Sequence record: ON286975 | Origin: Escherichia phage I29 | Length of the DNA stretch: 64,000 nucleotides | Reading direction: 5' to 3' (one strand) | Shown: in pieces, positions 3,406 through 41,034 of the stretch | Position numbering within the stretch: the first letter of the stretch is position 1 | How the letters are laid out: every line of letters starts with the position of its first letter | Notes under the pieces: generated by a model | Told to the model about the DNA's origin: nothing | The model's input: only the letters and a program-made list of their open reading frames with translations | The model's database searches: none | Made by a program: the position numbers and the translations under genes

Positions 3406-4119
3406 ATGCTGAATACTAAACTGATCGACAACCTGGAAAAACTGTCCCAGCCTGAAAACTACCTTTGGTCTGCCAACTGGGTGGAAAACTGGAACCGTGT
3501 GGCAGCTAAAGTGAAAAAATCATACACACCATTCGAATTACAGCTTAGCTTCATTGAGGAAGAGTTCAATGAGGTTTTGGAAGAGCTGGAGAAAGGTGAT
3601 GGTGGAGATCACCTGCTAAAAGAGGCCTGCGATCTTCACGTTGTCACAAGTTATGCAGCTTATCTTGTTAATGATAACCACGAAAAGTGGTCAAACCTGT
3701 TTGATAATCCGCGAGGTCTTAAGTTCAAGATCGGTGAGTTCTATGATACACTGATCGCTGCGAAAAACACATCCAAGCAAAGAGCGTCAGCTTACCGACT
3801 AGCGGAGTTATCAACAGCTTTGCTGTTCCAGCTTAGCGGGGATGTGTGTGGGATGATGCGGAAGGTTCTAAAATCTAATGACAGTAAGTTTGCACGGATC
3901 AACCATCTACGGCATTCACACGGTGCCAGTGCAGATATGCCTGCTGAACAACTCATCGAGTTGGAGATTAAAGATCTTGAGCGTCGTTTTGGTGGTCGCT
4001 ACGAAGGTTTCGTTGCTAAAGAGGAGTTCTACAACGGCAATAAAGTTATTATATTCCTTGACAGTAAAGGTAAGATTATGAAGCCTTCGAGCTTCAAGGA
4101 TGTAACAGAGTATATTTAA
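3406..4119 (+). CDS. MazG-like nucleotide pyrophosphohydrolase (tentative)
   Basis: Acidic helical EEEFNEVLEELEKGD motif. Confidence 0.35.
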   Translation: MLNTKLIDNLEKLSQPENYLWSANWVENWNRVAAKVKKSYTPFELQLSFIEEEFNEVLEELEKGDGGDHLLKEACDLHVVTSYAAYLVNDNHEKWSNLFDNPRGLKFKIGEFYDTLIAAKNTSKQRASAYRLAELSTALLFQLSGDVCGMMRKVLKSNDSKFARINHLRHSHGASADMPAEQLIELEIKDLERRFGGRYEGFVAKEEFYNGNKVIIFLDSKGKIMKPSSFKDVTEYI

Positions 4120-4125
4120 CAACAT

Positions 4126-4150
4126 AGCCGGGATTACCCGGCTTTACTTA
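4126..4150 (+). terminator. intrinsic terminator-like hairpin
   Basis: agccggg-atta-cccggct stem-loop then T-rich tail. Confidence 0.45.
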
Positions 4151-4181
4151 TTATGGAAAGTATGCAGTGAGGTAGTCAGTT

Positions 4182-4490
4182 ATGTACAAGCATTCCAGAG
4201 ATCTTGAAAAAGATGCTGTGTTTGGCGACCAGATGAAGGAGCTGATCAAACTTATTGGTAGAATGGAAGATAAGTTTGACACTAAAATCTACATCGATAG
4301 CAAGGTCTTCAACCACAAAATATGGACAAATGTGTGTGTTGGGCTACATGGTGATAAAGATATTGTAAATTTGGTTGTAATAAAGTTCATAGTGTGGCAG
4401 AATAGGACTATACGTTATTACGACCCACACTTACTTGTTTATCCTATAAAAGACCTACTACAGAAGGAGGACTGCAATGCCGTTATTTAA
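4182..4490 (+). CDS. hypothetical protein
   Basis: ORF in arm orientation. Confidence 0.4.
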   Translation: MYKHSRDLEKDAVFGDQMKELIKLIGRMEDKFDTKIYIDSKVFNHKIWTNVCVGLHGDKDIVNLVVIKFIVWQNRTIRYYDPHLLVYPIKDLLQKEDCNAVI

Positions 4491-4746: not shown

Positions 4747-6029
4747 TGCATCAGATCAAAACAACACTGTACGCACTGAATAAAGATGGCAGCTACCAAC
4801 AGTGGAAAGTATTCACGGATGGTGATAAGGTTATCGTAGAGTTTGGCAAGCTTGATGGTAAACTGCAGTACAAAGAGACGGTATGCACACCTAAGAACGT
4901 AGGTCGTGCCAACGAGACTACAGCTGAGCAACAGGCCGAGCTTGAGGCTATCAGCAAGTGGGAAAAACAAGTCCGTCTGGGGTATGTTGAAAACATGGAA
5001 GATTGCGAGCAGGGTGTTGATCTTTTACCCATGCTGGTGCATGACTACCTGAAGCGTGGCAAGGCACTTAAATTACCTTGCTGGATCTTGCGTAAGTTAG
5101 ATGGCCTTCGTCTGCTTGTTGTTTTCCAAAATGGTGAGCCTAAATTTATTTCCCGTGGTAATAAGTCCTACCCTATTCAAGGAAAGCTTTTAGAGCAACT
5201 TCGTTCTTTCCATTCTACCACTGGGATTAAACAACTTGATGGGGAACTATACATTCATGGTCTTCCTTTGCAGAAAATAGTGTCTCTTGCTAAACGGTGG
5301 CGCACACAGGAAGAGATTCAGGCCGAGATCGATAAAGACTATGAGGCAGATAAAAAACGCCGTCATGCAGCAATTAAGGCAGGTTTATCAACATACAAAA
5401 ACTTCAACAAGGTAGATATTCCTGTCGATGTTGAGCCTGTTCGTGATGATTTGCGTTACGGTGGGTACTGTAGCTACGATCTGGAGTATCACATTTTTGA
5501 TATTCCTAGCGACAAGGTGTGGTGGGATCCAGAAACAGAGTCTGGACGCTGCAAGGATCTTATGGATGCAGAGGATACCGTTACCACTCTGATGCTTGAC
5601 CATATCAAGGTTGTTGACGCAGAGCTTGCGTACACAGTTGATCATTGCGAAGAATCTGTTGGTATATTCATGTCCGAAGGATATGAAGGTACTATCATGC
5701 GTAATTTCTGCGGTAAATACGAGTACGGTCAGCGAACATCTGAAGCATTGAAATGGAAAAAGTTCAACGACGCAGAGGTGAAAGTTATTGACGTTGAGAA
5801 AGATAAGAATGATGAAGGTGTTCTTATCTGTGTTGACAAGGAAGGTGTTATTGTTAAAATGAAGATGAAAGGCACGCACGAGGAGCGTAGCTATGACAGG
5901 ATGCAGGAAATGATCGGCAAGTTTGTCACCTTCAAATATCAATCAAGGACAGAAGACAACAACTACCAATTCCCTGTCGGTATCTGCGTCCGAAATGTTG
6001 ACCCAGACACTTGGGAGGTTCTGGAATGA
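4746..6029 (+). CDS. ATP-dependent DNA ligase (T7-like)
   Basis: Motif I KLDGLR, EGTIMR and ALKWKK motifs as in T7 DNA ligase. Confidence 0.7.
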   Translation: MHQIKTTLYALNKDGSYQQWKVFTDGDKVIVEFGKLDGKLQYKETVCTPKNVGRANETTAEQQAELEAISKWEKQVRLGYVENMEDCEQGVDLLPMLVHDYLKRGKALKLPCWILRKLDGLRLLVVFQNGEPKFISRGNKSYPIQGKLLEQLRSFHSTTGIKQLDGELYIHGLPLQKIVSLAKRWRTQEEIQAEIDKDYEADKKRRHAAIKAGLSTYKNFNKVDIPVDVEPVRDDLRYGGYCSYDLEYHIFDIPSDKVWWDPETESGRCKDLMDAEDTVTTLMLDHIKVVDAELAYTVDHCEESVGIFMSEGYEGTIMRNFCGKYEYGQRTSEALKWKKFNDAEVKVIDVEKDKNDEGVLICVDKEGVIVKMKMKGTHEERSYDRMQEMIGKFVTFKYQSRTEDNNYQFPVGICVRNVDPDTWEVLE

Positions 6030-27834: not shown

Positions 27835-28074
27835 ATGTACAAGTCATTCTCAATTTACTCAAGACAGGCGAAACACTACACAGAGATCCTGATTACTCAG
27901 AAAAAATCTGTAGAAGGTGAGTGGGAATATCACCATAAAATGTTGCGTCCAGATTGGGTTTTTGATAGACTTATTGCCATGATCCCTCTTGGGGAAGTAT
28001 ACCCTCTGACAGCCCATCGCGATGCTTGGGATTTAATTGATTACATAGATTCATTTAAGGAGCCTAGATTATGA
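27835..28074 (+). CDS. hypothetical protein
   Basis: Start at MYKSF after AAGGGGG RBS. Confidence 0.35.
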   Translation: MYKSFSIYSRQAKHYTEILITQKKSVEGEWEYHHKMLRPDWVFDRLIAMIPLGEVYPLTAHRDAWDLIDYIDSFKEPRL

Positions 28075-28472
28075 AGATTGAGATTACTAAAGAAGGTAAG
28101 AAAGTGTCCGGCAACTATGCAACAGTAATTCGGGATTTAATGTTTGAAGCCACCAAGATAGGTACATCTAAAGTTGGTCAAACTGTTAGTGTGAAAAGTA
28201 ATATCGCCACAGGAGAGAAGGTATTCATTGTGGTCAAAGGGCAGGATCCTGTGGAAGGAACAGTGGGCCGAGGAGGTTACCTGTGCATTTCTGAAGAGCC
28301 TCGTATGCTAGTGGCTGACTCCGCTACTATAGGTGGGAAACGTGTGTGCGAGGCGGATGAGGTAATGATTATCCAGCCTGTTGACCCAGATGATCCAGCA
28401 ACTTGGGTGGTAGGAAATGAAATCTTCTCTTTAGAAGAGTTATCCTTCCCAGCCCCGCGCTCTGTTCAGTAA
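28071..28472 (+). CDS. hypothetical small acidic protein
   Basis: Tandem small-gene array. Confidence 0.45.
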   Translation: MKIEITKEGKKVSGNYATVIRDLMFEATKIGTSKVGQTVSVKSNIATGEKVFIVVKGQDPVEGTVGRGGYLCISEEPRMLVADSATIGGKRVCEADEVMIIQPVDPDDPATWVVGNEIFSLEELSFPAPRSVQ

Positions 28473-28511
28473 TAATTTATCTTACCAGGGACGGTAGAAG
28501 CAGGAGGTAGC

Positions 28512-28745
28512 ATGAAAGTTAAATTTCTTACAGATTTAGGGTACCCTTCCTTGGTTGACTGTGTTGGTAAAATTGTGGAAGCAAAACGGCTATCTGCAAA
28601 CGAGAATGTTGTCCTGGTTAAAGGGAAGGATTTACTAGCTGCAGGTGCAGAGTCTGGCAGGATCTCTCCTGATTATATGTATTACCTATCTTTAAGTAAT
28701 CTGCCAGAGCGAGGCGGTAAAGGCCTTGAAGTTGTGGAGGAGTGA
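28512..28745 (+). CDS. small acidic protein, MKVKxL paralog family
   Basis: MKVKFLTDLGYP, VKGKDLLAAGA, C-terminal EVVEE. Confidence 0.5.
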   Translation: MKVKFLTDLGYPSLVDCVGKIVEAKRLSANENVVLVKGKDLLAAGAESGRISPDYMYYLSLSNLPERGGKGLEVVEE

Positions 28746-29275
28746 CAGGTATGCTTCTGATTAACTGGGAAGACCTCTATGGGGACAAAGACCCTGTTGC
28801 GTTTGTTGATCGTAGGTGGAGATACACTGAAGAACAACTGGCGGCAAAAAATTTAACTGCAAAACGCAGAAAGATCATCCAGTGCAAGTACAAATACGCA
28901 CAGTTTGCTGCAAAAGTGTCTCCACAAATCGAGAGCTTTGTGCTTAAATTGTATGACGAGTACCTCAAATTCAAATTGGATTTTGTACAGGTGTACCGTG
29001 CACAGGTACGACCAGATACCAACATATGTAGATGGAAGGTTGTTTGTGACGGTAAAGATTTGCCGCTCAGCTTGACAATTGAGTGGCGTTATGGGTATCA
29101 TGAGTGTGGTCTGTATGATATTTGGGATGTCATTGTAGATCCTGCTAAGCATCTGAACACAGAGGAGCTGGAATATATCAATAAGGTTATTCTCGATATG
29201 TTTTTCAGCTACACCCATGAAAACTCTGAGAAAGAACGGGATAATTTTCTTGACACCCTCAGCTGCCATTTGTAG
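28742..29275 (+). CDS. hypothetical protein
   Basis: ORF in arm orientation. Confidence 0.45.
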   Translation: MTGMLLINWEDLYGDKDPVAFVDRRWRYTEEQLAAKNLTAKRRKIIQCKYKYAQFAAKVSPQIESFVLKLYDEYLKFKLDFVQVYRAQVRPDTNICRWKVVCDGKDLPLSLTIEWRYGYHECGLYDIWDVIVDPAKHLNTEELEYINKVILDMFFSYTHENSEKERDNFLDTLSCHL

Positions 29276-29305
29276 TATACAATTTAACCTACAAAGGGAG
29301 GACCA

Positions 29306-29542
29306 ATGAGTATAAATGTTGTGCTAATAGGTTACCTGGTAATGTCCGTTATAACAGCGGTATTCTTGACAGGTGTATGCATCGTGTCCAGACGAAGGGT
29401 GAAGTTTGATGATTTTATCACCATCATCACTGCTGCACCTTTTTGGCCTGTTGTTATCTTCATCGTGATAATGTGCCTGGTTGATTACTACAAGAATATC
29501 CGTAAGGAGAAAAAGGAGGGTAGGGATGGAGACCGCACCTAA
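29306..29542 (+). CDS. small membrane protein
   Basis: Two hydrophobic segments, basic C-terminus. Confidence 0.4.
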   Translation: MSINVVLIGYLVMSVITAVFLTGVCIVSRRRVKFDDFITIITAAPFWPVVIFIVIMCLVDYYKNIRKEKKEGRDGDRT

Positions 29543-29743
29543 AACTGTTTATACTGTTCTTAAAGAGATTGCGTTCTACGCAGATCTTAGTCAGGCACCT
29601 TTATGGGAAAAGAACATGTATTTAAAATGGTGCGTTAATTTAGGGAGACCTTCCAGTGTTTCAAGCCATGTTTATTGAGATGCTATCTGGGGTATTGTTA
29701 CTGGTAGCCATCTTAGGTGGTGCAGTTCTGATGTATAACTATC

Positions 29744-29947
29744 TTGAAAAAGGAGACAGTAATGGCAAAAAATAAATCTTTAGAGCAGGCTGAAAACCTT
29801 CTCCACGAGCTGGTAAAGGAGTGGAAAGTCGAATACTCAGATTTTAATGCACGAGAGGGTGAAGATTATTGGCCTACGGAGCGCTCCGAGGGTGAATGGT
29901 ATCAAGATTTTATAGAGTGGTTATATCAGACGTGCGATGAGGGGTGA
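29744..29947 (+). CDS. hypothetical protein
   Basis: ORF in arm orientation. Confidence 0.4.
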   Translation: MKKETVMAKNKSLEQAENLLHELVKEWKVEYSDFNAREGEDYWPTERSEGEWYQDFIEWLYQTCDEG

Positions 29948-30414
29948 CGATGTTTGTTAAATATGTAAAAACGTGCCTCAACAGCCTTGGCAGAGAGCAT
30001 TGGTACACCTTGCTTGAAAAAGGAGAAATTTTAACAAAATCTGGAAAGATAACTTTGATACCTCTTGATAGTAAAGGTAAAGACCCGTCACGACTTGTTA
30101 TAGATGATTACGTTACAGGTGTGACGTTCGAGGTCTCTGTGGAGAGGTTAATACGCAGAGCTGGCGGCCCTTATGACCGAAGAGAGTATGTTTTCGATTC
30201 CGTTACAGAGATGGGGGAGCATCCGTCTTTAATGTTCAGGATGGTAATCAGAGATATGAGGTCATCTATAGATAGGATCGTAAAGGACATTAAGGAACCT
30301 TTTAGAGTAAAAGTTAAGAAGTTTTTCGATTCTAAGATTAACATACTCGCCGTTGCACTAGGTGTAGTTCAACTTCTGTTAATTTTGCACTATTTTGAAC
30401 TGTTGTTTAAGTAG
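29944..30414 (+). CDS. hypothetical protein with C-terminal hydrophobic segment
   Basis: ORF in arm orientation. Confidence 0.4.
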   Translation: MTMFVKYVKTCLNSLGREHWYTLLEKGEILTKSGKITLIPLDSKGKDPSRLVIDDYVTGVTFEVSVERLIRRAGGPYDRREYVFDSVTEMGEHPSLMFRMVIRDMRSSIDRIVKDIKEPFRVKVKKFFDSKINILAVALGVVQLLLILHYFELLFK

Positions 30415-30474
30415 TGTGCAACAAGGCACAAAGGATGTGCCATAATTAAACAAATTAAGAAAGAGGTAGAGAGA

Positions 30475-30822
30475 ATGTCAAAGATTAAATCGATATTAAT
30501 GTGGGTAGCTGTTGTGGCTTTTGTAGGATACTGGACTTGGGAAACTGAATTAAAAGATATCGGATATACCAGTCTTGAGAGCAAGGCGTGCATTGGCATA
30601 ACCGATGCATTCAGGCAAAATGCTATGGATCACGAATGTGTCGATGCAGATATAGATGAGAAACTGTCTAAGGACAAGGATTTTTACCATGGTCATGCCT
30701 TGCTTGATAGTGGTGACACTGTAGAATTCTGGTCGTGGTTCCGTGAAGATGGAACAATAAAGACAGCAGTAAAGATTTCCAACAAAGAGTTAATGCTGTT
30801 GCAGCAGAAGGAGGTGCAATGA
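30475..30822 (+). CDS. hypothetical membrane-anchored or secreted protein
   Basis: N-terminal hydrophobic helix. Confidence 0.4.
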   Translation: MSKIKSILMWVAVVAFVGYWTWETELKDIGYTSLESKACIGITDAFRQNAMDHECVDADIDEKLSKDKDFYHGHALLDSGDTVEFWSWFREDGTIKTAVKISNKELMLLQQKEVQ

Positions 30823-31106
30823 TTTGGATATCCTACACTGATGGCACCATGCTGTATACTGCAGGTACCAGATATGAAGTTCAGGAGAACGATAAAAAAT
30901 TTATCGTAAAAACATTTGACAAGGACGACAACCTTTTGCTAGAATTGACTTACAAAGTTGGAGAGGTATCCAATATCCAGTTGGATTGTGGTCATAAAGA
31001 TAATCCACTCAAAAAACCTGGAGTAGGTAAGGCTTCAGAAGAACGTCTGTCTCGTATTGCAGAAAGCGTTTCTCCCCAAAAATCTAAGAAGAGGACTAGA
31101 AAATGA
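30819..31106 (+). CDS. hypothetical protein
   Basis: ATGA-coupled ORF. Confidence 0.4.
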   Translation: MIWISYTDGTMLYTAGTRYEVQENDKKFIVKTFDKDDNLLLELTYKVGEVSNIQLDCGHKDNPLKKPGVGKASEERLSRIAESVSPQKSKKRTRK

Positions 31107-31297
31107 AAAACTTACGTTTTAACACTTATTACTACAACACATTGAATGATTTGTATTATATTGTTCGAAGTAAAAGTCCTGAAACAGTCCTATTCTGCCG
31201 CGAACCTTTCAAAGGGGAGGAAGTAGAGTCTGAGATGAATGTTAGCCAGATCACCTCTTTGTTGCTCTCAGGCGCAATGGAAGAAGCAATATTCTAA
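31103..31297 (+). CDS. hypothetical protein
   Basis: ATGA-coupled ORF. Confidence 0.35.
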   Translation: MKNLRFNTYYYNTLNDLYYIVRSKSPETVLFCREPFKGEEVESEMNVSQITSLLLSGAMEEAIF

Positions 31298-31315
31298 ACC
31301 AGGCGGGAGGGTTTT

Positions 31316-31501
31316 ATGAAGCACTATTGCCTGTCTGGTAGAATGGGTGCAGATTGTGATTGGGTTTTCTTAAAACTTGTCAGCATTCGAGAGTTCATCC
31401 CAGAGGAAGAGCAAGAAAGCGAGCTGATGTCATGGATCAACCATTACGGTAACACTTTTCGGCATGTTAAGGTGGAAGAGTTGCCAAGCGAGGCTGATTG
31501 A
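31316..31501 (+). CDS. hypothetical protein
   Basis: ORF in arm orientation. Confidence 0.35.
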   Translation: MKHYCLSGRMGADCDWVFLKLVSIREFIPEEEQESELMSWINHYGNTFRHVKVEELPSEAD

Positions 31502-31596
31502 CTATGATTGCATCAATATTAACGTTTATGGGTGGCGTGGCATTCGGATTCATTGTTTGCCTGTTTATAGTGATTATGTCTATGCGAGGCTGAATT

Positions 31597-31893
31597 ATGA
31601 AACTTTTTGAGTGGTTTAAAAAGTTTAAATATAAAGCTGTAGCCATCGTGCCGTGGTCCATTCAGTGGGTTGATGAAGGTGGTCTACCAATACCTGGTGA
31701 CAAAGATACTGGGTACTGGATTATGATGGAGAACGGGTTTGGAAAGCGAAAGTATACGTGCACAAACTCTACTCGATCTGCACTTAATAGAGTGCCTGGT
31801 TACAAACTTATGGTTGTGTGGAAAATGTCAGGTGTGCCTCCAGCTAATGCTCAATTTCTTACTGACAATCCGACCACGGTGGAGGGAGATTGA
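31597..31893 (+). CDS. hypothetical protein
   Basis: ORF in arm orientation. Confidence 0.4.
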   Translation: MKLFEWFKKFKYKAVAIVPWSIQWVDEGGLPIPGDKDTGYWIMMENGFGKRKYTCTNSTRSALNRVPGYKLMVVWKMSGVPPANAQFLTDNPTTVEGD

Positions 31894-32177
31894 TAATGAA
31901 AAAGATTAACAGTGGTGAAGTTGAGTTTAAACTTGTCGGGAAAGGCACTTACTGGGAAGTTCGTCAAAAGGTATATTTGTTCGGTCTTATTCCCTATTGG
32001 TCTAAATTCTACTGGGGAGCTAACGAGTGGGGAAGATACGCCACCAAATCAATGGCACTTATTGGTATAGCAGAGTACATTGCAGCCAGAGATAGGGTTG
32101 GAGACACTTATTACTATACTGCGGACGATATTCGTAACAGTGTTTACGTCCCACAACCACCTGATGGAGACCGTTGA
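31890..32177 (+). CDS. hypothetical protein
   Basis: ATGA-coupled ORF. Confidence 0.4.
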   Translation: MIMKKINSGEVEFKLVGKGTYWEVRQKVYLFGLIPYWSKFYWGANEWGRYATKSMALIGIAEYIAARDRVGDTYYYTADDIRNSVYVPQPPDGDR

Positions 32178-32401
32178 TGAAAGTTAAAGTTTTAGATTCA
32201 AGCTTCTATATTGGTCAGGAGCCTTTAGTAGGGAAATTGTTTACTGCTGTCCCTAACGAAGATTACCCTGACCTTTTAAAAATAAAAGGGGCAGATCTTA
32301 TTGCCGCTGGTGCATCTCAGGAATGCTTTGACAGTCAGTGGACCTACAACTTTGCCCTAGGTGAGGATGTAGAGGTAGTGGAGGACGATCATGAAGGTTA
32401 A
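32174..32401 (+). CDS. small acidic protein, MKVKxL paralog family
   Basis: MKVKVLDSSFYIGQ, IKGADLIAAGA, VEVVED. Confidence 0.5.
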   Translation: MMKVKVLDSSFYIGQEPLVGKLFTAVPNEDYPDLLKIKGADLIAAGASQECFDSQWTYNFALGEDVEVVEDDHEG

Positions 32402-32645
32402 AATTCTTGATTCTAACGTCTACTTGGGACAATCCTTCCTGAATGGAAAGGTCGTTCCTGCGGTATACTTTGAAGGGTTGCCGTGGGATGATCCTGTGCG
32501 GCAACATCACAGTTATGTAGGCCACAACGTGGTGTTTATCTTGGGATCAGACCTGATCACCGCTGGTGCACCTGAATATTATTTCGGGGAAGAGTCCTAC
32601 TATGCCTTTGGGGTAGGGTCAGATGCAGATATTGTAGAGCTGTGA
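32391..32645 (+). CDS. small acidic protein, MKVKxL paralog family
   Basis: MKVKILDSNVYLGQ, LGSDLITAGA, DIVEL. Confidence 0.5.
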   Translation: MKVKILDSNVYLGQSFLNGKVVPAVYFEGLPWDDPVRQHHSYVGHNVVFILGSDLITAGAPEYYFGEESYYAFGVGSDADIVEL

Positions 32646-32657
32646 TGGGTAACCGTT

Positions 32658-33056
32658 GTGAAAAATAAACTGTTTAAAGTTACAATGAAAATTCGCGGGG
32701 CTTGGAGCGTAAAGCAAGGGCGTATTCCAGAATTTGAGAAGGACTTCTACGTAGTCTCCACCTCGGAGGAGGCTGCATGCTGGCAGGCTGGCTATGCCTA
32801 TGCAAGAACCTGGTACGAAGGATACCAGACTGGGGGCTATGACGGAGAAATTATCAGCAAGGGTGTAGAAGAAATTAATGTGTTGACAAGTGAAAAAGTT
32901 TTTGTTATAGTGCATCCAGATTCCAGAGTGAAGCATTACTGGAATTCCAGAACAAAAACTTGGACACCGTTTGCAGATTCTGCTACACCACTTTTAAACC
33001 AGAAAGCTCTTGATTCTGTCCCAAGCTATGGGGTTGTTGAAGAAAAGCTAAACTGA
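32658..33056 (+). CDS. hypothetical protein
   Basis: ORF in arm orientation. Confidence 0.4.
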   Translation: MKNKLFKVTMKIRGAWSVKQGRIPEFEKDFYVVSTSEEAACWQAGYAYARTWYEGYQTGGYDGEIISKGVEEINVLTSEKVFVIVHPDSRVKHYWNSRTKTWTPFADSATPLLNQKALDSVPSYGVVEEKLN

Positions 33057-33073
33057 AACAGTGAGGTGCCACT

Positions 33074-33364
33074 ATGATGGATTTAGTTCTGAATATTGAT
33101 AACGCAGGAGAGGTTAAAGACGATGGTGTAACAAGCATGGACCAGCCATGCCCTGCCAAGATTGACTCAAAATGGACCTATAAGTTTGACGGAGAGATCT
33201 TTGCAAATGATGAAAAGGTTGTAGATGCTGCAGCCATTTTGAACGCTCTAGGGTACGACCCTGTAAATTCTTTGATCAAGGATCCTGTTGAGTTTGCAGA
33301 GTATGTTCGAAAAATGGCAGATCTTGCTGTAGATATTTTAAATACTATCGACAACAATCTGTAA
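33074..33364 (+). CDS. hypothetical acidic protein
   Basis: ORF in arm orientation. Confidence 0.4.
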   Translation: MMDLVLNIDNAGEVKDDGVTSMDQPCPAKIDSKWTYKFDGEIFANDEKVVDAAAILNALGYDPVNSLIKDPVEFAEYVRKMADLAVDILNTIDNNL

Positions 33365-33370
33365 AAACTG

Positions 33371-33399
33371 TTGACACAACGCTTCAGATTTAGTATCAT
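33371..33399 (+). promoter_or_regulatory. sigma70-like promoter with 5'-UTR hairpin, upstream of the HPF-like gene
   Basis: TTGACA-17-TATCAT, then agaggg-tttggtt-ccctct hairpin and AAAAGGA RBS. Confidence 0.55.
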
Positions 33400-33446
33400 T
33401 GTTTTCAAAGAGGGTTTGGTTCCCTCTTCTTTAAAAGGAACACGTT

Positions 33447-33764
33447 ATGCAAATTGAAATCACTGGCAACGTAGAAATCACTGAAGGTATGGTGTCTTTC
33501 ATTTCCCACAAAATGTCTAAGCTGGAGCGTTTGCACCCCTCTGCCAACTATGCACGTGTGAGTGTAAAAGTTGAAAATGATCACCAGGAAGTTATGGCGT
33601 TCATTTTTGACAATTCTGGAAAAGAAGTTATTGCCAAAGCTAAAGGCAGTGATGCTTACGAGGCAACTGACCGTATGGTAGATGTTGCAGCACGTCAGCT
33701 GGCTAAATGTGGTGGAAAGAAAGGTAAGGGGAAAGGCAAAGTAAAGATTGACTTTGGAGAATGA
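33447..33764 (+). CDS. ribosome hibernation promoting factor / RaiA (YfiA-HPF family) homolog
   Basis: MQIEITGNVEITEGM...KLERL...VSVKVE...GSDAYEATDRMVDVAARQLAK follows E. coli HPF/YfiA. Confidence 0.75.
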   Translation: MQIEITGNVEITEGMVSFISHKMSKLERLHPSANYARVSVKVENDHQEVMAFIFDNSGKEVIAKAKGSDAYEATDRMVDVAARQLAKCGGKKGKGKGKVKIDFGE

Positions 33765-33901
33765 GGTGCTACAATGGGTGTGATTAAGAAATTAGTCCCA
33801 AATGTAGAGATTGCATGCTTTGAAATTATGTTTGCAATCGCAGTTGTAGTTAATGTGTTAGGTTACGGCTATTAATATCAAATAATTGAGGAGACCTCTA
33901 A

Positions 33902-34171
33902 ATGAAAATTAAATTATTCAAAACTGAGCTGGCAGACAAAAACTGTGGACTGGTTGAAGGCATGATTGTCGAAGCACAACCAGTTGACTATATGAAGGTG
34001 GTTCGTGATGCCCTGGGTGAAGGTTTTGATCTGATGGAGCCAGCTCTGCGCGAAGATGTTATCGAGATGGCTAAAAAGCACACACCTGAAGGTTTGGTGG
34101 TGTTTGTTGCACCGGGTAACGGAGAAGAGTTGATTGTAACTCCTGATGTGTATGAGATTGTAGAGGAATAA
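33902..34171 (+). CDS. small acidic protein (MKIKL/MKVKxL-like)
   Basis: MKIKLFKTEL..., C-terminal EIVEE. Confidence 0.45.
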   Translation: MKIKLFKTELADKNCGLVEGMIVEAQPVDYMKVVRDALGEGFDLMEPALREDVIEMAKKHTPEGLVVFVAPGNGEELIVTPDVYEIVEE

Positions 34172-34262
34172 TCCTGCTTGGATTAGCATACTTCCTCGAT
34201 AAGGAAGATTTGTAATTATTTGTGGGAAAGGAATCCCAATCTCTTACCAGAGGTGATACTAT

Positions 34263-34526
34263 ATGATTGTTTATTTTAAAACTTCAGGTGGATACCCTGA
34301 TTCTCAAAGCTTGATCGGAAAAACGTGCACAGCATACTCACCTCTTGATGAGGAGGTAAGCGATATTCTACGAAATATGTATCGGATTGATCCCCAAGAA
34401 GCTTTTGATCAAAACCTTGTATTTGTCAAGGGCTCAGACATGAAGTCTTTGGGAGCATTCCCTGAAGCAGATGATGATGCCGTTTATTCGTTCATGACCC
34501 CTTTTGAAGCTATGGTTGTTGGGTGA
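34263..34526 (+). CDS. small acidic protein, MKVKxL paralog family (divergent)
   Basis: GYPDSQSLIGK, VKGSDMKSLGA. Confidence 0.45.
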   Translation: MIVYFKTSGGYPDSQSLIGKTCTAYSPLDEEVSDILRNMYRIDPQEAFDQNLVFVKGSDMKSLGAFPEADDDAVYSFMTPFEAMVVG

Positions 34527-34530
34527 TAAT

Positions 34531-34863
34531 ATGAAAGTACGCTTTATTGGTGAAACAATTCCTGTGCATCTCCGGTCGCCTGAAGATTCTGCGGATCTTG
34601 CATCTCAGAAGGCGAGAGGTTATGATAAGAAAGTAATCTCAACCGATGTAGAACTTGAGGCTACTAGTCTACCTGACCCTGCTGCATTCTTCAATCATTA
34701 TGGATACTATTTCAGCAATCTGATGAATATCGGTGAGCTTGTGTTTATTAGTGGTGGAGAGATTGTTAGCAAGCTTGGCGGCGATCCAGATGTCTTTCAT
34801 GAAACCTGTCCTTTTGCATTTGTGGTAGGTTCAGATGTGGAAGTTATTGAGGAGGTGCGGTAA
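34531..34863 (+). CDS. small acidic protein (paralog family, divergent)
   Basis: MKVRFIGE start, FISGGEIVSKLGG, VEVIEE. Confidence 0.45.
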   Translation: MKVRFIGETIPVHLRSPEDSADLASQKARGYDKKVISTDVELEATSLPDPAAFFNHYGYYFSNLMNIGELVFISGGEIVSKLGGDPDVFHETCPFAFVVGSDVEVIEEVR

Positions 34864-35258
34864 TGGTAAGCCTATACCGTGTTGAGTATAGCTCAGATAC
34901 TGTATACAACGTAAGAAGCAAAGATCGCAGCGACAGAGTGCAAGAAATGTATGTTCTTGCCGACAGTCCGTTATCTGCAGCGTTCAAGGCAGGGGCTCTT
35001 GCATCTCGTTGGAAATTTGAAGGCGGATCTTTCTATGAAGAAACCCTTGAAGATTCTGTTGTTATTTCTTCTGTAGAGGTTTCAGACGACTACGAAGGGA
35101 AAAAGTTCGTAATGCGGCACCCACACAGCAACATTGCGTACTACTGGGATGTTCTGAACAACGAGTGGACCCCAGATCTTCAGAAGGCTACTGTGCTAAC
35201 ACCGTTTTTGGCAGATAAGTTCCCACCAGAAGGTAATTTATCCGCACTGTTTCAGTAA
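34863..35258 (+). CDS. hypothetical protein
   Basis: ATGG-coupled ORF. Confidence 0.4.
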   Translation: MVSLYRVEYSSDTVYNVRSKDRSDRVQEMYVLADSPLSAAFKAGALASRWKFEGGSFYEETLEDSVVISSVEVSDDYEGKKFVMRHPHSNIAYYWDVLNNEWTPDLQKATVLTPFLADKFPPEGNLSALFQ

Positions 35259-35275
35259 TTTTCTTGCACACAGGT

Positions 35276-35306
35276 GTTGACAACGCCAACCCTGTGTGAA
35301 ATAATA
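35276..35306 (+). promoter_or_regulatory. sigma70-like promoter
   Basis: TTGACA then A/T-rich -10 region. Confidence 0.45.
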
Positions 35307-35334
35307 CCTTCATCTTAACAAGACAGGAGACCGA

Positions 35335-35595
35335 TTGATGAAGATTAAATTGAAAAACCTTGAAACGGCAGAGATTCAGGACGGTGTTGATTTCCGTTCT
35401 AAAGATGGTGACATCTTAGAGGTAAATATTCCAACCTACGAGCTGATTAAAGGTTTTGGCAACGTTCCGGAAGAGGATATTACAGAAATTCTTATGATGT
35501 TGATTCTTGACGGAACTGTGTTTGTAGGTGAAGGTGAGAACGCTATTGCAATCCCAGGCCATTTTTATGAAGTAGTTGACGAAGAGGTGCTGTAA
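35335..35595 (+). CDS. small acidic protein
   Basis: MMKIKLKNL start, C-terminal EVVDEEVL. Confidence 0.45.
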   Translation: MMKIKLKNLETAEIQDGVDFRSKDGDILEVNIPTYELIKGFGNVPEEDITEILMMLILDGTVFVGEGENAIAIPGHFYEVVDEEVL

Positions 35596-35946
35596 ATGAA
35601 AGTAGAAATTACCGGTTTTGATGTGAATGTGGTTCCGGAAGATATTTTAGCTAAACTTCCAGAAGGTTTTGGTAACGGCGTTGTGGTGGATGCTGTTCCT
35701 CCTACCAAAGACATTCTGCTGCAGTATGGTGTAGCAGAGGAAGATGTCGATAAAGTTCTTACAATGATGGCAATCGATCGTGTTGTCGTTGTTAAAGGTC
35801 TCGATAATTTTGAGAGTGATCCCCTGATTATTCGTGGAGATGACTACAAAATCATCGATAATGAAGGCCAAGAGTTCTATGAACCTTGTGCAGAAGATAT
35901 TCTTAACTTATTACTGGAAGCAGGTACCGAAGAGGAGGACGAATAA
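35596..35946 (+). CDS. small acidic protein
   Basis: MKVEITGFD start, acidic tail. Confidence 0.45.
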   Translation: MKVEITGFDVNVVPEDILAKLPEGFGNGVVVDAVPPTKDILLQYGVAEEDVDKVLTMMAIDRVVVVKGLDNFESDPLIIRGDDYKIIDNEGQEFYEPCAEDILNLLLEAGTEEEDE

Positions 35947-36275
35947 TGAAGATTGACCCGTTACTGAAGGCTCGTGCAGAAAAAGCGTACACCATTAAGC
36001 TGACCAACCTGGTTCCTACTTGTCATCCAGATGTAGGTTGGCCTGAAGGTCTGGTAGAGGGGACTGTAACAGCTGCATACCTCCCTAACATCAAATACCT
36101 TATGGAAATCTTGGAGCTGGATGAGGAAACGGCAGAAGAGTTACAGTTGGACATGAAACAAAGTGGGACTCTGGTTATTCACGGGTGGTATAATACTAAA
36201 GACGCAGAAGACCCTCTTGTAACTTCTAATCTGGCATATGAAATCTTAGGACCTTTGAACCTGGGGGAAGACTAA
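35946..36275 (+). CDS. small acidic protein
   Basis: ATGA-coupled ORF. Confidence 0.45.
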   Translation: MKIDPLLKARAEKAYTIKLTNLVPTCHPDVGWPEGLVEGTVTAAYLPNIKYLMEILELDEETAEELQLDMKQSGTLVIHGWYNTKDAEDPLVTSNLAYEILGPLNLGED

Positions 36276-36568
36276 TGAAAGATCTGGTTAAGATTAAGAT
36301 TAAGATTAAAGATACCAACGGCGAACTCAGCCATTTTGGAATTAATGATGGTGACGAGCTGATCGCACACCTTCCTACCAAGGAAGTTGTAAGCAAGGCG
36401 GTTGCCGGAGAAGAAGATGCAATGCAGGCTGCAGGTGTGGATGAAAACTATGTAGCCATGTGCATGTGCCGAGATCAGGTTGTTCTGTATAAAGCGTATC
36501 GACCAAACGGAGCCACGGAGTGGCTTGTATTCCGACCAGAAGGATATGAAATCTTAGAGGCACTATGA
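36275..36568 (+). CDS. small acidic protein
   Basis: ATGA-coupled ORF. Confidence 0.45.
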   Translation: MKDLVKIKIKIKDTNGELSHFGINDGDELIAHLPTKEVVSKAVAGEEDAMQAAGVDENYVAMCMCRDQVVLYKAYRPNGATEWLVFRPEGYEILEAL

Positions 36569-38044: not shown

Positions 38045-38352
38045 GGTGGATTATGTCTACAAAGGCGGCTAAATACTCTTACATGCCATCAACCTCTGCA
38101 GAGGTAGACTTTAGTTTCGATGTGTTTCCACTGTTTGAGGTGGTTCTGGCATACCCAACAATACTATCTACTCCTGAATCACTTGTGCCTGTTAAGTTGC
38201 AGAACGCTATGCATTCTATGCACTACAACAATAAATGTAGGCACAGATGGTGTCAGGACGAGGAAAAAGATTTGGATAGTTTGAGAGATTTTGACAGTCA
38301 CCTTTTGACACCTTTCAGCTACTCCAACCTTGATAAGCCCTCATGGGTATAG
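38041..38352 (+). CDS. hypothetical protein
   Basis: ATGA-coupled ORF. Confidence 0.4.
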   Translation: MRWIMSTKAAKYSYMPSTSAEVDFSFDVFPLFEVVLAYPTILSTPESLVPVKLQNAMHSMHYNNKCRHRWCQDEEKDLDSLRDFDSHLLTPFSYSNLDKPSWV

Positions 38353-39045: not shown

Positions 39046-39261
39046 ATGAAGATAGAAATATTTGGTGGAGCTGACAACACTCGTGGCCTGATTTACCTGG
39101 AATTCGATGAATCATACCTGCCAGAGGTGTTAAATATAGACTCTGTTGCTGAGGCTTTGGGAGTAAACCCTAAAGAACTCCACTCTTGTGCTGAGATCGA
39201 TGGTTGGGAAGAGACCATGAACATTGATTTCAGTGAAGTAGAGGATGAACCGCTGGACTGA
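39046..39261 (+). CDS. small acidic protein, last gene of the rightward arm
   Basis: MKIEIFGG start, GGAG RBS. Confidence 0.45.
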   Translation: MKIEIFGGADNTRGLIYLEFDESYLPEVLNIDSVAEALGVNPKELHSCAEIDGWEETMNIDFSEVEDEPLD

Positions 39262-39894: not shown

Positions 39895-40440
39895 CATACT
39901 CTACCTGTCTGATCAATTTCCCCAACCACATCCTCCATATTTTCCCTGTCTGTACTACCCCTGCCCCGCCGTGAGTCCCGTCATATCTGGCTTTCCAGCA
40001 AATATCACACCCACAAATATCATTGCCTGAAGAGGGTTTCATCTCATAATATATGCCTTACCTGAAGAGCGCTTCATACACCACGTAATTTTTTTTTTAA
40101 TTGACCCCCTCCCCGCCGCTGGAGAGGTTGGCTTTTCCCACACAGACCTGAAGAGTCAGCCAGAAATATCTGAACAGGCCCAATTCTACCACGATTTTGA
40201 CCTGACCTACAGGAGTGCTGCCAGGCGGACGAAATGGGAATCATTCTCATTCTTATAACAATTCTCAAATATCGAGGCAGTGAGGCAAATTAATAGGTGA
40301 GGCCGTTCACACAATGGCACAACATTTGCAACCTATCTTGTGGGAGTGAATGAGAATACCTATCATTGTGAGAATAGTTATCATTACGGGCAATTTAACA
40401 TAATACCCATTATGCGCACCGCTGGTGATACATACAGGGA
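39895..40440. repeat. direct repeat copy 1 (546 bp)
   Basis: Identical to 40489-41034 as far as compared; track ORFs inside the two copies translate identically. Confidence 0.85.
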
Positions 40441-40543
40441 AAATATGGAGGATGTGGTTGGGGAAATTGATCAGACAGGTAGAGTATGCATACTCTACCT
40501 GTCTGATCAATTTCCCCAACCACATCCTCCATATTTTCCCTGT
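40434..40543. repeat. 110-bp perfect palindrome at the junction of the two repeat copies
   Basis: 40441-40488 is the exact reverse complement of 40489-40536, and the match extends 7 bp further on each side; centre gtatg|catac. Confidence 0.85.
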
Positions 40544-41034
40544 CTGTACTACCCCTGCCCCGCCGTGAGTCCCGTCATATCTGGCTTTCCAGCAAATATC
40601 ACACCCACAAATATCATTGCCTGAAGAGGGTTTCATCTCATAATATATGCCTTACCTGAAGAGCGCTTCATACACCACGTAATTTTTTTTTTAATTGACC
40701 CCCTCCCCGCCGCTGGAGAGGTTGGCTTTTCCCACACAGACCTGAAGAGTCAGCCAGAAATATCTGAACAGGCCCAATTCTACCACGATTTTGACCTGAC
40801 CTACAGGAGTGCTGCCAGGCGGACGAAATGGGAATCATTCTCATTCTTATAACAATTCTCAAATATCGAGGCAGTGAGGCAAATTAATAGGTGAGGCCGT
40901 TCACACAATGGCACAACATTTGCAACCTATCTTGTGGGAGTGAATGAGAATACCTATCATTGTGAGAATAGTTATCATTACGGGCAATTTAACATAATAC
41001 CCATTATGCGCACCGCTGGTGATACATACAGGGA
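40489..41034. repeat. direct repeat copy 2 (546 bp)
   Basis: Period 594 bp relative to copy 1. Confidence 0.85.

Follow-up and report, generated by a model that had tools for sequence, protein, structure and literature searches.

rV5-like phages are common candidates for therapy and biocontrol and have a broad host range, with most of their genes lacking a known function. Arrays of accessory genes are familiar in phages, and a described case close to the one considered here comes from phage Bas54 (MaxBurger, MZ501093), to which HIDEN-SEQ transposon sequencing was applied (bioRxiv preprint 10.1101/2025.11.20.689424). In that study, a knockout showed that the gene bas54_0140 is needed against DS-28, a predicted defence system of E. 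coli CFE311, a uropathogenic isolate for which K-12 served as the comparison host (10.1101/2025.11.20.689424). Here, we analysed a stretch of 64,000 nucleotides (nt) of Escherichia phage I29 (sequence record ON286975; the window) and, within it, an array of small genes at 28071-36568. The window belongs to a Vequintavirus (rV5-like myovirus) with up to 98% nucleotide identity to known phages, and more than 100 deposited genomes already contain the array sequences, annotated as hypothetical proteins. We sorted 12 of these hypothetical genes into three families, and one three-gene group was tied to a host-specific requirement that had gone unremarked. The new elements are the 5 + 5 + 2 family structure, the assignment of a predicted fold, the broad yet sparse spread of the first family, and the link to the host-specific requirement.

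The original prediction, made from the letters of the window, had described an acidic array containing one expanded MKVKxL paralog family. All-against-all BLASTP among the 681 open reading frames (ORFs) of the window, together with the building of hidden Markov models (HMMs), revealed significant similarity, so the paralogy is real, but the proposed set turned out to be two families of five (fam1 and fam2) with no detectable sequence relation to each other. A third pair, 32685-33056 and 34863-35258 (fam3), had been overlooked. The families cover 12 of the 26 genes of the region (fam1, n = 5; fam2, n = 5; fam3, n = 2) and are listed here by coordinates, with lengths in amino acids (aa).

28512-28745, plus strand: fam1 member A, 77 aa, compact; ortholog bas54_0166; PHROG 5009 E 8e-36; HMM E 3e-24
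32177-32401, plus strand: fam1 member B, 74 aa, compact, modelled; ortholog bas54_0159
32391-32645, plus strand: fam1 member C, 84 aa, 14-aa loop insert, 11-nt overlap with B; ortholog bas54_0158
32685-33056, plus strand: fam3 copy 1, 123 aa when started at ATG, with a GTG at 32658 as the alternative start; ortholog bas54_0157; PHROG 7379 E 1e-73
33902-34171, plus strand: fam2 member D, 89 aa; ortholog bas54_0153; leave-one-out E 6.6e-4
34263-34526, plus strand: fam1 member E, 87 aa, insert of ~22 aa; ortholog bas54_0152, 100% identical; HMM E 2.4e-6 and 1e-17
34531-34863, plus strand: fam1 member F, 110 aa, insert of ~40 aa; ortholog bas54_0151; HMM E 6.9e-5 and 2.5e-6
34863-35258, plus strand: fam3 copy 2, 131 aa; ortholog bas54_0150, 99.2% identity; PHROG 7379 E 2e-66
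35338-35595, plus strand: fam2 member G, 85 aa; leave-one-out E 1.6e-3; Smith-Waterman z 8.4 to H
35596-35946, plus strand: fam2 member H, modelled, 116 aa with an acidic helix at the C-terminus and a net charge of -21
35946-36275, plus strand: fam2 member I, 109 aa; leave-one-out E 7e-4
36275-36568, plus strand: fam2 member J, 97 aa; leave-one-out E 9e-6

In tblastn, the Bas54 genes aligned to the window with amino-acid identities of 97-100%. This placed bas54_0150 at 34863-35258, 0151 at 34531-34863, 0152 at 34263-34526, 0153 at 33902-34171 and 0157 at 32685-33056, while 0158, 0159 and 0166 corresponded to the genes starting at 32391, 32177 and 28512, and bas54_0146-0149 ran from 36275 back to 35338, all on the plus strand. 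According to the supplement of the preprint, bas54_0146-0168 were all Non-essential or Intermediate on K-12, and resampling of K-12 versus a sample labelled '311' returned 27 conditionally essential genes (10.1101/2025.11.20.689424). In sample '311', bas54_0150, 0151 and 0152 showed log2 fold changes (log2FC) of -6.77, -6.17 and -7.16, each with zero reads; the three genes span 59 TA sites, and the genes flanking them had normal counts. Further, bas54_0157 was depleted approximately 4-fold (log2FC -2.14, adjusted p 0), the change in bas54_0153 (log2FC -2.78) was not significant, and 0146-0149, 0158, 0159 and 0166 were unaffected (10.1101/2025.11.20.689424). The main text of the preprint is silent on the fam1, fam2 and fam3 orthologs, and its follow-up knockouts concerned only bas54_0063 (MoxR) and bas54_0140. 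As read from these published data, at least one group of the array, 34263-34531-34863, appears to bear a host-specific requirement and would be needed on the uropathogenic host. Because its orthologs are dispensable on K-12 yet had zero reads on the uropathogenic isolate, the idea that the array is directed at the host or its defences gains indirect support; the original prediction had proposed inhibitors of host enzymes or defence systems, and its DNA-mimic or anti-restriction part is left unsupported.

We favour, with a probability of roughly 0.5, the reading that fam1, fam2 and fam3 are non-enzymatic binding proteins that serve as host-range or counter-defence factors and not in core infection functions. 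The proteins would be stoichiometric binders neutralising strain-specific host factors, most plausibly defence systems, and each paralog, or each group of two fam1 genes and one fam3 gene, may cover a different host variant. Protein binding, cooperation between adjacent fam1 and fam3 proteins, and a defence system as the target are what we infer here. Several points weigh against this reading. The host label of the key comparison is ambiguous: in supplementary file 9 (Data S6), the sheet headed 'resampling_K-12_vs_CFE303' contains a command line naming 311, and the next sheet has identical numbers; probably a sheet there was mislabelled or duplicated by mistake. CFE311 selects for tail-fibre genes too, so that something other than a defence system may be the host factor. 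Moreover, seven of the ten fam1 and fam2 genes are without a significant phenotype on CFE311, and the HIDEN-SEQ data come from a preprint. Finally, the depletion of insertions in E and F may reflect a polar effect on fam3 copy 2.

The arrangement of the genes bears on this last point. The two fam3 copies are related in BLASTP (32658 versus 34863, E 4.9e-7), both match PHROG 7379, and each is preceded by a fam1 pair, so that the order fam1-fam1-fam3 is found twice. The groups are tightly coupled: B and C overlap by 11 nt, E and F are 4 nt apart, and the start of fam3 copy 2 overlaps the stop of F (ATGA). Within fam1, 32177 and 32391 are mutually nearest relatives (Smith-Waterman z 25), and the strongest tie between the two groups joins 32391 with 34531 (z 8.5). 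The order and these similarities are consistent with a fam1-fam3 pair that was duplicated long ago, with a tandem duplication later. No fam3 homologs were found beside the fam1 relatives of Proteus or Citrobacter phages or in fam1 fusion proteins, and a database search with fam3 returned Vequintavirus sequences only.

Given this coupling, only fam3 might be host-specific (34863-35258, and 32685-33056 partly), with the loss of E and F insertions being a polar or translational-coupling artefact and fam1 and fam2 having another or a marginal role. E, F and fam3 copy 2 indeed form one coupled unit through the 4-nt gap and the ATGA overlap, no promoter match lies between D and fam3 copy 2, and the other fam3 copy is depleted too whereas its upstream B and C are not. 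However, D, which lies upstream in the same predicted unit, is far less depleted than E and F, and insertions in B and C leave fam3 copy 1 undepressed, a point against strong polarity in that paralogous unit. [quoted passage not shown] We regard a requirement for fam3 alone as doubtful, although it deserves to be kept in mind.

The membership of fam1 and fam2, on which the binding-protein reading is built, was established at the profile level. For fam1, BLASTP connected 32177 with 32391 (E 5.6e-13) and with 28512 (E 1.5e-5); an iterated HMM from these three added 34263 (E 2.4e-6) and 34531 (E 6.9e-5) and then converged, and a wider fam1 profile recovered the same five window ORFs, with the next one at only E 0.21. 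A, B and C match the profile of PHROG 5009 at E 4e-32 to 1e-37 and E matches it at 1.2e-4, while F is tied to the family solely via the window and library profile (E 2.5e-6). The fam2 members resemble one another with Smith-Waterman z scores of up to 8.4 (35338 versus 35596), and in leave-one-out HMMs each of the five was the top non-training match (E 3.7e-10 to 1.6e-3). The genes ending in IVEE or VVDEE (33902, 35338 and their neighbours), previously counted as MKVKxL members, accordingly fall in fam2. The fam1 HMM scores fam2 members at E > 5, and hhalign gives the two families a probability of 16%, over the N-terminal strand, or 2.5% with the insert-bearing members only; because of these results we consider that two families had been merged. 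Homology between fam1 and fam2 was rejected as not shown, the two having only a predicted fold class in common; a common ancestry is possible. Two additional candidates were also rejected: 28071-28472 has no sequence relation to fam1 or fam2, and 39046-39261 reached E 0.026 in one leave-one-out run and was lost with the full model.

Fam1 and fam2 are predicted to be SH3-like small beta-barrels of 70-116 aa. This assignment comes from predicted models and is confident or plausible for the two families. A conserved core is combined with a predicted hypervariable loop between strands 2 and 3 of 2 to ~40 residues, and the fam1 inserts of ~14 (32391), ~22 (34263) and ~40 (34531) residues are in the same inter-strand loop. 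Many structure matches with TM scores of 0.7-0.9 were obtained in BFVD, all of them uncharacterised phage proteins, including A0A514CYF5, A0A514CYE9 and A0A514CYG1 (adjacent accessions, probably from one genome). The fam1 pattern extends over approximately 70 aa (MKVKLL...GK.VEA...G.EL..AGA...Y.F...EVVEE); its near-invariant positions M1, Y11, L41, G45 and F59 are core-type, and no catalytic motif is apparent among the conserved positions of the family alignment. In several products of the region, the codons of the EE tail are the in-frame GGAGG ribosome-binding site of the next gene. Since the EVVEE C-terminus is conserved across fam1 relatives in unrelated phages, this ending is a family trait too, besides its overlap with the ribosome-binding site.

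Searches of Pfam, NCBIfam, PADLOC and PDB sequences with members of the three families gave nothing meaningful, and their PHROG matches are all of 'unknown function', in line with the earlier statement that no member belonged to a recognised family. For the Pfam KOW motif, no Pfam match at E <= 0.1 was obtained for any member or for 35 relatives. No mention of the matching PHROGs was found in the literature, Vequintavirus genes were not found in a published accessory-gene screen, and genome-wide EdH4 data were not found in the CRISPRi-ART paper.

When 1.84 billion cluster representatives were searched with the fam1 profile, 44 relatives emerged at E <= 1e-3, mostly of approximately 70 aa, and tblastn located relatives in Citrobacter, Proteus, Enterobacter, Aeromonas and Iodobacter phages. 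In the T4-like Citrobacter phage Moon, the relative is located between gp32 and frd, and others occur in a podovirus (Proteus) and in siphoviruses, always within blocks of small hypothetical genes. By these searches, the relatives are shown to have a scattered, phage-only distribution. Proteus phage RS51pmB has two copies (4001-4216 and 5443-5658). Tandem fam1 repeats also exist in single proteins, with two in P0026 and three in P0025, some relatives have a C-terminal extension, and on a metagenome contig the gene for one two-repeat protein precedes those for a dCMP deaminase and a D5-type primase. Since unrelated phages carry two or three copies (RS51pmB and the BFVD trio), the multiplicity of the fam1 fold is not unique to rV5-like phages. 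The fusions of two or three fam1 repeats, the tight translational coupling, and the recurrent fam1-fam1-fam3 order together suggest that neighbouring array genes act together. We therefore put forward, tentatively and as distinctly more speculative than the binding role itself, that the barrels of fam1 (and perhaps fam2) could be a hitherto overlooked, broadly scattered phage family of modular inhibitor subunits, that fam1 pairs and fam3 could form a three-part complex against an immunity or exclusion system of CFE311, and that the loop between strands 2 and 3 might set the specificity, with the array as a stock of specificities.

The region 28071-36568 makes up the distal, accessory portion of the genome's long plus-strand arm, which ends in a gene-free zone of approximately 2 kb where the minus-strand genes of the other arm converge. 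The head-to-tail packing of small genes that had been noticed at first was borne out: there are 26 plus-strand genes with products of 50-174 aa, overlaps (-1 to -17 nt) are found at 8 of the 25 junctions, and at 13 the genes lie no more than 5 nt apart. This gene count uses start sites from curated BASEL records, and GenBank records annotate 3 additional mini-ORFs in the region. An MK start is not diagnostic of family membership because it is found in 15 of the 26 genes. Nearly every gene of the region is a 'hypothetical protein' in GenBank, except for a ribosome hibernation factor homolog, which is embedded in the array outside the three families, and some inconsistent labels. Sigma-70-like promoter matches occur in the intergenic gaps at 29250, 33371, 33748 and 35277, and the promoter scan gave 49 such sites against 33 ± 5 expected. 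These matches are the sole support for a putative early expression of the array, and no transcript timing data for the array were found in the literature. Other features of the array and its surroundings are as follows.

29950-31893, plus strand: variable segment of six small genes, absent from Bas54; the tblastn mapping jumps from bas54_0161 (29762-29944) to bas54_0160 (31896-32174)
33447-33764, plus strand: phage ribosome hibernation factor homolog (S30AE); Pfam PF02482 E 1.8e-12, 48.3 bits against a cutoff of 23.7
35277-35305, upstream of fam2 member G: sigma-70-like promoter match, 11/12, from the promoter scan
38053-38352, plus strand: bas54_0140 ortholog, 99%, by tblastn; PHROG 12072 (unknown function)

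The fold and the hibernation factor could also be read as signs of host takeover, in which SH3/KOW-like barrels would bind RNA polymerase, the ribosome, or NusG/uL24 partners and redirect expression beside the hibernation factor. The S30AE/HPF homolog does lie within the array, and the promoter matches fit early expression. Nevertheless, all array genes are dispensable on K-12, the Pfam KOW match is missing, and a target in conserved machinery fails to explain a strain-specific requirement, and we consider such a role unlikely. The Bas54 ortholog of the S30AE gene was itself dispensable on K-12 and showed no effect on the clinical isolate (10.1101/2025.11.20.689424).

The original prediction had also called these families rapidly diverging. 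In fact, orthologs of this phage and Bas54 are 97-100% identical at the amino-acid level versus 22-46% for paralogs, so that the divergence is that between old paralogs, and the comparison means that each paralog copy is under long-term purifying selection. In 121 phage records, the 8.5 kb region has a match with a nucleotide identity of 90-98%; these are nearly all Escherichia Vequintavirus, the closest being pangalan, HdK5 and CarlMeissner/Bas48 (each 98%), and at least 80% of it is kept in 114 of these 121 genomes. Given that chimeras of B and C exist and that the six-gene segment is absent in Bas54, copy number in the array is in flux, and the array shows birth-and-death. The chimeras (P0006 and P0007, on contigs of ~133 kb) are 70-aa proteins whose N-terminal half comes from 32177-32401 and whose C-terminal half comes from 32391-32645, a structure that indicates unequal crossover between tandem paralogs in some Vequintaviruses. 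Within the variable segment, 29950-30414 is variously called an HNH endonuclease or a virion structural protein by GenBank and PHROGs, labels that Pfam does not support.

It is very unlikely that the array consists of dispensable, drifting duplicates without a specific function and that the CFE311 signal is a library bottleneck artefact. The non-essentiality of the genes on K-12, the variation in copy number, and the availability of a single readable dataset are compatible with this account. However, long-term purifying selection on each copy, seen in the identities of orthologs and paralogs, and the retention of the region among related genomes speak against drift, and zero reads throughout three adjacent genes with normal flanks are not the pattern of a random bottleneck.

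The acidity ascribed to the array holds for about two thirds of it, with an isoelectric point (pI) below 5.5 in 17 of the 26 proteins, but 8 have a pI above 7.5. Most members have a pI of 4.0-4.8, and the net charge reaches -21 in 35596-35946. The earlier suggestion of DNA-mimic, anti-restriction or anti-CRISPR-like inhibitors with acidic surfaces imitating DNA, which this acidity, the small size and the accessory location of the genes would favour, is the one to which we give least credence, as the compact fam1 members have a net charge of only -1 to -10, the predicted SH3-like barrel is not a known DNA-mimic fold, and the Vequintavirinae are exceptionally sensitive to restriction-modification (RM) systems according to the BASEL paper (PMC8594841).

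The ortholog of bas54_0140 (38053-38352) lies 1.5 kb downstream of the array, and having this knockout-validated counter-defence gene as a neighbour speaks for the host- or defence-directed reading. Beyond it, inside the gene-free convergence zone, are two direct repeats of 300 nt (39895-40194 and 40489-40788) that are 100% identical and separated by 594 nt; the Bas54 counterpart of this zone tolerated no transposon insertions (10.1101/2025.11.20.689424). In the Bas54 table, a run of small hypothetical genes on the other arm (among bas54_0123-0134, whose orthologs would lie on the minus-strand arm of the window right of ~41.3 kb) is also depleted on the clinical isolate, with log2FC of -4.3, -5.2 and -2.9 for 0132, 0133 and 0134.

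Compared with catalogued protein families, fam1 is closest to PHROG 5009, which it matches, and to the sister PHROGs 13367, 7345 and 8603, which are matched by distant fam1 relatives of approximately 70 aa with the same pattern; the insert-bearing E and F differ in falling in PHROGs of their own (13920 and 13661, respectively) and are joined to the others by profile search only. The nearest known fold class would be that of the SH3-like small beta-barrels (SH3, KOW of NusG/Spt5, PsaE and uL24), here without a Pfam KOW match. T7 Ocr, ArdA and T4 Arn are, like the family members, small acidic phage accessory proteins, but the family members have no sequence or fold match to these known DNA-mimic families, and rV5-like phages are RM-sensitive. 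If the target is a defence system, fam1 would be a new counter-defence family with relatives in T4-like and T7-like phages and in siphoviruses. The described gene nearest to this role is bas54_0140, which differs from fam1 and fam3 in having been verified through a knockout and linked to a cloned system, DS-28, and has no sequence relation to either family; like the array genes, it is small, lies on the same genome arm, is dispensable on K-12, and is depleted on the same isolate.

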